From IMG/VR virus record IMGVR_UViG_3300033463_000022, positions 1 to 22,541 of that record: a DNA stretch of 22,541 nucleotides. One strand, given 5' to 3'. Under the pieces are notes generated by a model. It saw only the letters and a program-made list of their open reading frames with translations. It ran no database searches and was not told where the DNA came from. The number at the start of each line of letters is the position of its first letter. The stretch's first letter is position 1. This DNA comes from a virus. Its lineage: Duplodnaviria > Heunggongvirae > Uroviricota > Caudoviricetes. Below are positions 20,720-22,387 of the stretch, one piece after another. The position numbers and the translations under genes were made by a program.

Positions 20720-20761
20720 ACCTCATTTGAAAAATTAAAAAATATATTATATAATATATAT

Positions 20762-21282
20762 AGAGATTGAGAGATGGAGCATGGCTCCTCTCTTAGAAAC
20801 TCTTCGTTAAACCACCTACCTGTGAAGCTGGCTGAGCCAGTGGTCGGTAGCGGGTCACAAGTCCCGAGTTTGTGAAGCTGGTGAGGTCGCAAACGTCAAG
20901 TGCGAGTGGCGAAAAGCCCTCCTCGAGGTCGACTGGTGGAGGCAAGGCGGCTAGAGGCCTAGAATCTCTATCGTTCACTGTAAGAACTGAAAACGTACAG
21001 CGTATTCCACATACGAAAGAGCGGAAGGTTTCTTAGATCATCCAGAAATCTAGGCGATCGGTGCGCGTGATAGCGCTGGGTTAAACCCGTCATCCCTGTA
21101 GAAGTACAAAAAAGACGGGCGCGCGTTTGGAGCGTAGTCCATCGAGTGAACCAGCTACCACGGCGTCAGAAGCCAAGCTGGGTGATGTATGGGTTTCATC
21201 ACTAAGGGTAACTTGCCCAAAACCCTTTGTGCTGAATCCGCGTTGTACGCGGGGAGCGCCGCGCGCCTTACAGCGGTATCTT
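20762..21282 (+). ncRNA. Large ornate structured RNA (ROOL/GOLLD-like candidate)
   Basis: About 520 nt GC-rich ORF-free tract after a TTGAAA-17-TATAAT promoter; many hairpins plus long-range GGCGCGCG/CGCGCGCC pairing; lies within a tRNA island. Confidence 0.6.
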
Positions 21283-21286
21283 CCTT

Positions 21287-21361
21287 GGGCGACTAGTACA
21301 TCGGTTAGTACAAACGGCTGTTAACCGTTAGAGCAAGGTTCGATTCCTTGGTTGCCCGCCA
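21287..21361 (+). tRNA. trnN: tRNA-Asn(GTT)
   Basis: Stem AACGG/CCGTT, loop CT-GTT-AA, G discriminator, encoded CCA. Confidence 0.9.
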
Positions 21362-21529
21362 AGGAATAGCAAATTTTCCTATACAACAGATGCGCGGTTG
21401 GCTGACCTTAAGGCTCGATAGAAGTATTGCCAAGTGCGTGCCGCTTACCACTAAAATTACTTCTATTCGGACCGCGCCAAGCGAGGGCGTATCAATGTCG
21501 TTAAACTAATCATAAATGCTCGCTAATAT

Positions 21530-21606
21530 GCGGACGTAGCCCAATGGCAGGAGGCAAATGCCTTAGGAGCATTGCAGTGTGGGTTCGAATCCCTCCGTCC
21601 GTACCA
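21530..21606 (+). tRNA. trnL: tRNA-Leu(TAG anticodon, reads CUA), short variable loop
   Basis: Stem AATGC/GCATT, loop CT-TAG-GA, 5-nt variable region, encoded CCA. Confidence 0.85.
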
Positions 21607-21609
21607 TAT

Positions 21610-21686
21610 GCTCGCTTACTCCAATTGGCAGAGAGGGCAGGTTCAAACCCTGTAAAGTCTGGGTCCGAATCCCAGAGCGAGTACCA
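21610..21686 (+). tRNA. trnL: tRNA-Leu(CAA), short variable loop
   Basis: Stem GCAGG/CCTGT, loop TT-CAA-AC, 5-nt variable region, encoded CCA. Confidence 0.85.
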
Positions 21687-21818
21687 TTGGTGTTTGTCGG
21701 CACCGCAAGTGTGTTACATTTCCGTAGATGCTGCACACAGCATCCCCGAGCGAGAGGATGGATAAAAGGTTCCTAAGGCAGCAAGGAGCTGTAAGTATCT
21801 CGCCGCTGCCAATTATAT

Positions 21819-21895
21819 GGTCATGAGGGAAAACTAGCAGATCCGCCGGCCTGTCACGCCGGAGATAGCGGGGGCAGCACCCGTCTTGATCGCCA
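21819..21895 (+). tRNA. trnD: tRNA-Asp(GTC) with non-canonical T-loop
   Basis: Stem CCGGC/GCCGG, loop CT-GTC-AC, T-loop GGCAGCA, encoded CCA. Confidence 0.8.
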
Positions 21896-22047
21896 GCCGC
21901 GTTTGGTAGTATCGCGGGCGCTGAATAACTGCCACTATGGTTGTCGGCTAAGACGCATTGTGCGCCCCTAAAACCGTCATAGAATGGTAGGACTCTATTA
22001 AATGTGCCTCCTTTGGCAAGATGCTCTGCCGAGAAAATGAGCTACAA

Positions 22048-22146
22048 GTCGATGCTCTTTAAGCGATGGGTGGTTCGAATCCACAGGTGCCCGACGAGGG
22101 CGCCTCCAAACCACGGTACACGGGAATCGCCGCTTGAGTTGTTGGC
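22048..22146 (+). ncRNA. Circularly permuted tRNA mimic, YrlA-type Y RNA candidate
   Basis: T-arm GTGG-TTCGAAT-CCAC, closed acceptor-like hairpin AGGTGCCC/GGGCGCCT, D-like arm, enclosed by GCGAT/ATCGC and an extended outer stem beginning GTCGA. Confidence 0.55.
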
Positions 22147-22387
22147 GCAACAAGAGCAATGGAGTTGAGATTTGGGGAGCGAGTAGCGCCAACTACTCCT
22201 CTTGCGGGACCGGTCGGAAGTGCGGGTGTATGGACTAAAAGCCAGCCCCGACCGGCGCCGCAAGAGAATCCACTTTGATTTTATTAAAAATTTAATTTAT
22301 AATAGTTATAGAAAATGAGAAAGACGCTTGCAGCAACTATTTTTTACATATTTGCTTGGAATGTATGTTTTGTGCGTCTTGGTATTT

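Follow-up and report, generated by a model that had tools for sequence, protein, structure and literature searches.

A circularly permuted tRNA top-half element in a gut phage tRNA array shares the cargo, but not the handle, of the lineage's ACAGCAA-handle RNAs

The window, a DNA stretch of 22,541 nucleotides, lies at the very start of a 147-kb IMG/VR record of a gut phage (IMGVR_UViG_3300033463_000022), for which completeness is estimated at 85%. ARAGORN identifies 25 tRNA genes in this genome, spanning 18.8–40.6 kb and lying on the + strand throughout, with gaps between tRNA genes down to 3–4 nt. A tRNA-Asp(GUC) gene at 21819–21895 (+ strand) was overlooked by both ARAGORN and Rfam, and 153 nt downstream of it begins the structure considered here, hereafter called the 22048 element. 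On its 3' side we find a long GC-rich hairpin (approximately 22190–22270) and then a new promoter at 22275–22303 (TTGATT-17-TATAAT, near-consensus), which drives a small RNA and tRNA-Ala. No + strand promoter was found from 20755 to 22275. As the 22048 element has no promoter of its own, we infer that it is most likely co-transcribed as the final structured unit of the operon with a promoter at 20727–20755, which holds tRNA-Asn, Leu, Leu and Asp. Of the whole region, the AT-rich promoter block at 22274–22323 is shared most broadly with related phages, in which BLAST detects dozens of copies per genome at 76–88% identity. A protein-coding reading of the locus was rejected: the minus-strand ORF at 21643–22263 (206 aa, with TAG read as Q) has no Pfam match and an implausible composition.

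The first-pass annotation had described the element as a circularly permuted tRNA mimic, and all of the strings that it quoted were found where it had placed them. On the + strand, the element opens with GUCGAUG (GTCGATG in the DNA, 22048–22054), which has one mismatch to the Y RNA motif GNCGAA(N)G and is unpaired in the minimum free energy fold of the isolated element. The 5' strands of two enclosing helices occupy 22054–22065 (GCUCUU at 22054–59 and AAGCG at 22061–65), and the first-pass annotation had proposed an alternative register here, beginning with GCGAU at 22063–67. The T-arm follows at 22069–22085 (GTGG-TTCGAAT-CCAC at 22070–84), with a loop of UUCGAAU and a stem of four standard pairs plus G49.A65; the stem positions 49–53/61–65 of tRNA numbering correspond to 22069–73/22081–85. 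The T-loop 11-mer GGUUCGAAUCC agrees with the tRNA consensus at every base, and the arm shows 16-nt identity with the T-arms of many tRNAs. Next is a closed acceptor-like hairpin at 22085–22105, AGGTGCCC-GACGA-GGGCGCCT, with eight pairs including one G.U. In tRNA register this is a helix of 7 bp (22086–92 with 22098–104, including the wobble G5.U68) with an optional eighth pair, A22085–U22105, and its closing loop GACGA (22093–97) contains no CCA.

The hairpin leads into a stemless D-region at 22105–22125 (+ strand), with U8 at 22105 and G18, G19, U20 and A21 at 22115–18, the string CGGTA sitting at 22114–18. A ‘D-like arm’ had been proposed for this segment, and the proposal holds in part: U8 and GGUA do sit in tRNA register, but a maximum of three pairs (TCC/GGA) can form, one of which competes with the eighth hairpin pair. 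In tRNA numbering, position 14 is C, such that A14 is lost, and C10–G25 is the only possible pair of the four in a D stem. The 3' strands of the enclosing helices lie at 22126–22157 (+ strand), comprising AUCGC at 22126–30 or CGCUU at 22131–35, and AAGAGC at 22152–57, with a small hairpin at 22138–22151 within this 3' part. The sequence confirms that the element has neither an anticodon arm nor a CCA.

Folding predictions differ strongly between the isolated element and longer contexts. The acceptor-like hairpin has a pair probability of ~1.0 in every context and is the sole robust helix, while the T-arm has a pair probability of 0.67 in isolation and ≤0.07 in context. The GCGAT/ATCGC enclosure proposed on first pass is present as strings at 22063–67/22126–30, but its probability as a helix is ≤0.05; the isolated element instead prefers AAGCG/CGCTT (22061–65/22131–35), which is the same pairing shifted by two bases, together with GCTCTT/AAGAGC (22054–59/22152–57). 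These preferred enclosing helices have pair probabilities of 0.85–0.99 and ~0.8 in isolation and <0.06 in long context, and the suggested extension into a GU-rich outer stem starting at GTCGATG is weak. When 180 nt or more are folded, a GAGCUAC/GUGGUUC pairing supplants both the T-arm and the enclosing helices with a probability of at least 0.9. Fold z-scores are also weak (121 nt, −1.39; 216 nt, −1.35). Since tRNA arms are frequently overlooked by thermodynamic folding, these predictions weaken a tRNA-like fold for the element but do not refute it.

The genome contains 23 T-arm motifs, and in the 22048 element alone is such a motif directly followed by a hairpin of at least 7 bp. Across 100 dinucleotide shuffles, a mean of 0.05 modules of T-arm plus hairpin was obtained per shuffled genome, and of the T-arms inside ordinary tRNA genes of related phages, 5/560 (0.9%) have such a hairpin behind them. 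Taken together, these two rates make chance a poor explanation. Numbering from G22098 as +1 places T at +8 and GGTA at +18 to +21. Among permuted tRNA-like RNAs of related phages, +8 is T in 36/36 and the D-loop GG is found at +17/+18 in 35/36, and this match indicates that the segment 3' of the hairpin is a D region in the correct register. The order T–closed acceptor–D described on first pass is that of a real circularly permuted tRNA top half, with an architecture as in YrlA. In its anatomy, we consider the 22048 element to be a genuine tRNA-derived, circularly permuted top-half mimic.

The resemblance to YrlA had also been taken to suggest a phage Y RNA. YrlA RNAs have the motif GNCGAA(N0-1)G close to their 5' end as well as near-invariant T and D stem-loops, and their genes are located within 4 kb of Ro60 (PMC4201824). 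As a family, they are bound by Ro60 and carry pseudouridine 55 and dihydrouridine. The T stem-loop is present in the 22048 element (GGUUCGAAUCC, four standard pairs plus G.A), as is an acceptor-like stem-loop between T and D (the 8-bp hairpin at 22085–22105), and the YrlA domain order of motif, stem, T, closed acceptor and D can be followed through the element. As in YrlA and Yrn1 (RF02553), the permuted tRNA-like domain sits within a helix of distal sequences. The YrlA of M. smegmatis likewise has a 7-bp acceptor-like stem, which makes it a substrate for RNase P and then for CCA tailing, and D. radiodurans Yrn1 likewise lacks a full D arm (PMC4201824). These likenesses speak for a true Y RNA of YrlA/Yrn1 type. 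On this reading, GUCGAUG together with the enclosing stem would be the binding site for Ro60, either the phage's Ro60-fold protein or one from the host, while recruiting or blocking a further factor would fall to the tRNA-like domain. Pairs of Ro60 and Y-like RNA are already on record from phages (PMC12135203).

However, every membership test that could be run disfavours this Y RNA reading. The putative motif is GUCGAUG instead of GNCGAA(N)G, with U at the sixth position, where the CGAA core requires A. Of the D stem-loop (GCUC-A..GGUA-GAGC), we see just GGUA and U8, with 1/4 of the stem pairs possible. The YrlA model RF02553, for which the gathering score is 69 bits, gave no match to the element at E≤10 in searches of 701 nt, of the whole genome or of 156 nt, whereas it scored 34.8 bits over its full length at 40102–40218 of the same genome. 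There is no Ro60/TROVE gene on the same strand within ~4 kb of the element. In short, the name ‘YrlA-type Y RNA’ is unwarranted for the 22048 element and should not be used.

A search for a Ro60/TROVE gene, as the first-pass annotation had suggested, gave a mixed outcome. The Pfam TROVE domain was not found in the phage genome, but one gene of Ro60 fold, the only one in the genome, was identified at 41364–42884 (506 aa), on the same strand and 19.2 kb from the 22048 element. The protein matches DUF2828 plus DUF7788, and also phrog_850, ‘RNA-binding protein’, at 6e-125. When its AlphaFold model (13 homologues, pLDDT 71) was compared to the PDB, the top 13 matches were all Ro60 structures aligned over the full length, with E-values of 7e-7 to 3e-4 and TM of ~0.5, including D. 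radiodurans Rsr, the Ro60 of Thermus phage phiLo, and Xenopus and human Ro60. These matches indicate that a Ro60-fold partner exists in the phage, which favours the Y RNA reading; the distance of this gene from the element, and its neighbourhood, count against it. The neighbours of the Ro60-fold gene are handle RNAs (see below) and not the 22048 element, and the RNAs that accompany this protein family share an ACAGCAA handle that is missing here. One such RNA lies at 40102–40218 (+ strand, outside the window), 1.1 kb upstream of the Ro60-fold gene; it combines the ACAGCAA handle with a T-arm, a closed acceptor and a D-arm of canonical form, and its sequence makes it a convincing candidate for the genome's YrlA-like RNA. 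The phage flagellin points to probable hosts of Oscillospiraceae type, and TROVE was not found in 106 (5 + 101) genomes of this type, which is a sample and not proof of absence.

Other known classes of tRNA-like RNA were also considered. Rfam searches with the element returned no family at gathering score or at E≤10, including YrlA, tRNA and tmRNA. An ordinary tRNA (RF00005) was rejected, as the element has no cloverleaf, anticodon arm or free acceptor ends, and both default ARAGORN and Rfam came back empty. An ordinary or intron-containing tRNA can be drawn only as poor ARAGORN models at low stringency, such as a class-II-like tRNA over 22006–22092 with several mismatches and an 8-nt anticodon loop. 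A one-piece or permuted tmRNA was likewise rejected: there is no G3.U70, CCA or credible tag, default ARAGORN and the Rfam tmRNA models gave no hits, and the tmRNA calls from relaxed ARAGORN have implausible tags. Permuted gene order does occur among two-piece tmRNA genes, and their tRNA-like domain resembles the 22048 element in its T-arm and acceptor helix, its D-loop without a D stem, and the helix that replaces the anticodon stem. It differs in having G3.U70, where the element has a wobble at 5.68, and the element has no CCA and no tag reading frame. In circularly permuted tRNA genes of the Cyanidioschyzon merolae type, as here, the 3' half precedes the 5' half and the two are joined across the acceptor ends. 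The products of those genes, however, are complete tRNAs, matured via a circular intermediate and possessing an anticodon arm, which the element lacks.

The phage lineage also has a family of ACAGCAA-handle RNAs. From 80 loci of related phages, 36 permuted elements were gathered, of which 24 were aligned (alignment A2). The consensus reads AAAGAC.C-NN-ACAGCAA, V hairpin, T-arm, closed acceptor, D-arm and, further 3', G.GUCUUG, and 17/21 predicted pairs carry compensatory changes. A covariance model built from the 24 aligned RNAs, R2, finds five members at 18–30 kb of the phage's own genome (22319–22382, 25172–25267, 25786–25928, 26553–26672 and 28290–28357), and the genome has six copies in all, counting the RNA at 40102–40218. 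The first of these, at 22319–22382 (+ strand, R2 score 32.9 bits), is the small RNA mentioned above, with a GCAGCAA variant of the handle and a stem of AAGACGC/GCGUCUU; it begins 16 nt after the promoter at 22275–22303 and ends 5 nt ahead of tRNA-Ala.

The 22048 element has the same cargo module as these handle RNAs, and shares their genome, strand and tRNA array. Like them, it combines a T-arm, a closed acceptor, U8 and a D-loop GG in the +17/+18 register (T at +8, GG at +18). By contrast, the handle, closing stem and D stem found in the family are all absent from the element. R2 aligns to it only locally, at 13.7 bits, covering the T-arm and hairpin, a score no higher than that of an ordinary tRNA T-arm. 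CAGCAA does not occur in the 140 nt preceding the element, whereas in modules of T-arm plus closed hairpin located outside the tRNA genes of relatives, CAGCAA lies within 55 nt upstream in 36/39 cases (92%), and at least one of the remaining 3/39 has a one-base variant of it. Neither ACAGCAA nor the closing stem AAGRC.C/G.GYCUUG could be recognised, and the outer stem misfits the invariant G-C and C-G columns. The lack of an upstream CAGCAA and the local R2 match show that the element shares the cargo of the family but not its defining handle.

We note in passing that GUUGGCGC (22141–48) and GCGCCAAC (22187–94) are perfectly complementary on the + strand, with ACAAGAGCAA 3' of the first strand, and this pair may be a degenerate handle-like element overlapping the 3' side of the 22048 element, although the family model does not support it. 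A degenerate handle (ACAA, GGCAAG, ACAAGAGCAA) was considered by eye and rejected, as was a resemblance between outer stem and handle stem; neither was judged significant, and neither has the support of the family model. Around one third of the permuted handle RNAs of relatives encode (G/A)CCA right after the 3' acceptor strand, in the closing loop, a fraction read by eye from alignment A2 (loci L037, L040, L071, L072, L075, L082, L084 and L089). From sequence, it looks as if these RNAs are cut in the loop to expose a tRNA-like CCA end; the 22048 element differs in having no closing-loop CCA.

Searches for orthologues of the 22048 element were uniformly negative. None was found in GenBank phages using megablast and blastn, in IMG/VR using an exact 24-mer, in 50 related phage records using BLAST and a single-sequence covariance model, or in JGI metagenomes using a gapped pattern followed by a covariance model (35 loci). 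When neighbouring proteins were used as anchors, no relatives emerged with the 448-aa or the 308-aa protein, and the 668-aa protein led only to distant ones. A tRNA-Asp pattern used as an anchor gave six loci, in none of which the element lies downstream. Three relatives preserve the tRNA order found here (... Asp, Ala, Glu, Glu, Met), and their Asp–Ala spacers hold a promoter and an unrelated leader but no 22048 element. No ancestry from a specific tRNA could be traced among the 713 tRNAs of relatives, as the T-arm alone resembles any of them.

The interpretation that we favour, with a probability of roughly 0.4, is that the 22048 element is a working tRNA mimic in the form of a handle-less minihelix. 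In such a mimic, the T-arm would be stacked on an acceptor helix of 7–8 bp closed by a 5-nt loop, and the D-loop would retain G18 and G19, the bases that build the tRNA elbow. The element would then represent a lineage-specific, handle-less relative of modules that normally occur inside ACAGCAA-handle RNAs. If it is functional, RNase P would be predicted to cut between A22097 and G22098, by analogy to the 7-bp stem of M. smegmatis YrlA (PMC4201824), and modification by TruB and other T-arm enzymes would be anticipated. The element might then also act as a decoy, although the first-pass suggestion of a sponge for anticodon nucleases is unlikely for an RNA without an anticodon loop. The working mimic is favoured by the selective preservation of the element, as the T-arm and 16 hairpin bases are intact where the D stem and handle have become unrecognisable, which is not what uniform decay predicts. 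It is also favoured by the fact that the D-region bases that are kept are the elbow-forming ones, and by the frequency and covariation support of the same architecture in relatives. Its orphan status, which yields neither covariation nor a sign of purifying selection, the weak z-scores and the predicted sequestration of the T-arm in longer transcripts weigh against it. So does the missing handle, with which the element may have been deprived of whatever lets the module function.

The strongest competing explanation, which we nonetheless judge to be on the unlikely side, is that the 22048 element is a non-functional relic. This could be a permuted ACAGCAA-handle RNA that has decayed, losing its handle and D stem, or the leftover of a tandem-tRNA junction, where the 3' half of one copy and the 5' half of the next automatically yield a T-arm, a ‘closed acceptor’ and a D region. 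The absence of the element from the searched relatives and from the syntenic spacer agrees with such an origin, as do the loss of a handle that 92% of such modules possess, the degenerate D stem and the loss of A14. The 3–4 nt gaps between tRNA genes in this genome make tandem junctions with short loops plausible, and the poor class-II-like tRNA at 22006–22092 can be read in the same sense. On the other hand, decay severe enough to remove the handle, the D stem and the anticodon arm would be expected to have damaged the 15-nt T-arm and the 16 paired hairpin bases too, yet all of these are intact. Beyond the T-arm there is no resemblance to any of the relatives' 713 tRNAs, and the handle stem has invariant G-C and C-G pairs that the outer stem does not match.

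Two further readings are less likely than either the working mimic or the relic. It is improbable that the T-arm and hairpin are simply parts of a generic structured trailer, an approximately 380-nt GC-rich 3' trailer (21896–22273) that ends the tRNA operon and serves as a processing or termination region with no separate tRNA mimic. A 395-nt stretch does fold better than shuffled sequences (z −2.53, 1/100 shuffles as good), with other helices replacing the T-arm, and it closes with a long hairpin just ahead of the next promoter. However, an exact GGUUCGAAUCC with U8 and GGUA in register would be unexpected in a generic trailer, which moreover matches no Rfam family and is missing from relatives. 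The Y RNA reading is the least probable of all, with RF02553 silent at the element, the CGAA core broken, the Ro60-fold gene 19 kb away and TROVE not found in the phage or in the 106 genomes sampled from the likely host group.

Phage Y-like RNAs and tRNA mimicry have been published before (PMC4201824, PMC12135203); the new item is one variant of the permuted cargo module that lacks a handle. It shows that the permuted module of T-arm and closed acceptor can exist outside both YrlA and ACAGCAA-handle contexts. Should the element prove functional, it would delimit the smallest portion of the mimic and tell apart what ‘cargo’ and ‘handle’ each do; a relic would document the origin and decay of such modules. 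Its practical value is limited at present, since only one copy is known, in one phage that has not been cultured. A growing view holds that phage tRNA arrays serve as weapons in conflicts over host translation; mimics of tRNA, such as YrlA and tmRNA-like domains, are rare and poorly understood. A bolder proposal, which we regard as a long shot, is that the working mimic might represent a second class of phage tRNA mimic that does not depend on a handle. It would be an RNA reduced to ‘elbow plus minihelix’, which RNase P would cut in the closing loop and which would then act independently of the Ro60-like protein. Such an RNA might, for example, sequester a host factor specific for the acceptor/T-arm of tRNA, or serve the neighbouring tRNA-Asp, which has no canonical T-loop.

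The tRNA-Asp at 21819–21895 is itself unusual, in that GGCAGCA replaces UUCGAAU as the T-loop and there is a U6.U67 mismatch. It can be aligned to the tRNA-Asp of relatives, with compensatory changes in the acceptor, and a G(G/U)CAGCA T-loop is seen again in the tRNA-Asp of several further phages. Non-canonical T-loops such as GGAGCGUAACC or GGAGCAAAGCC, which lack the U54-U55-C56 signature, occur in several tRNAs of the phage group, the TAG suppressor tRNA(CUA) among them; they were noted at locus L130 and at 40226–40299 of the phage's own genome.
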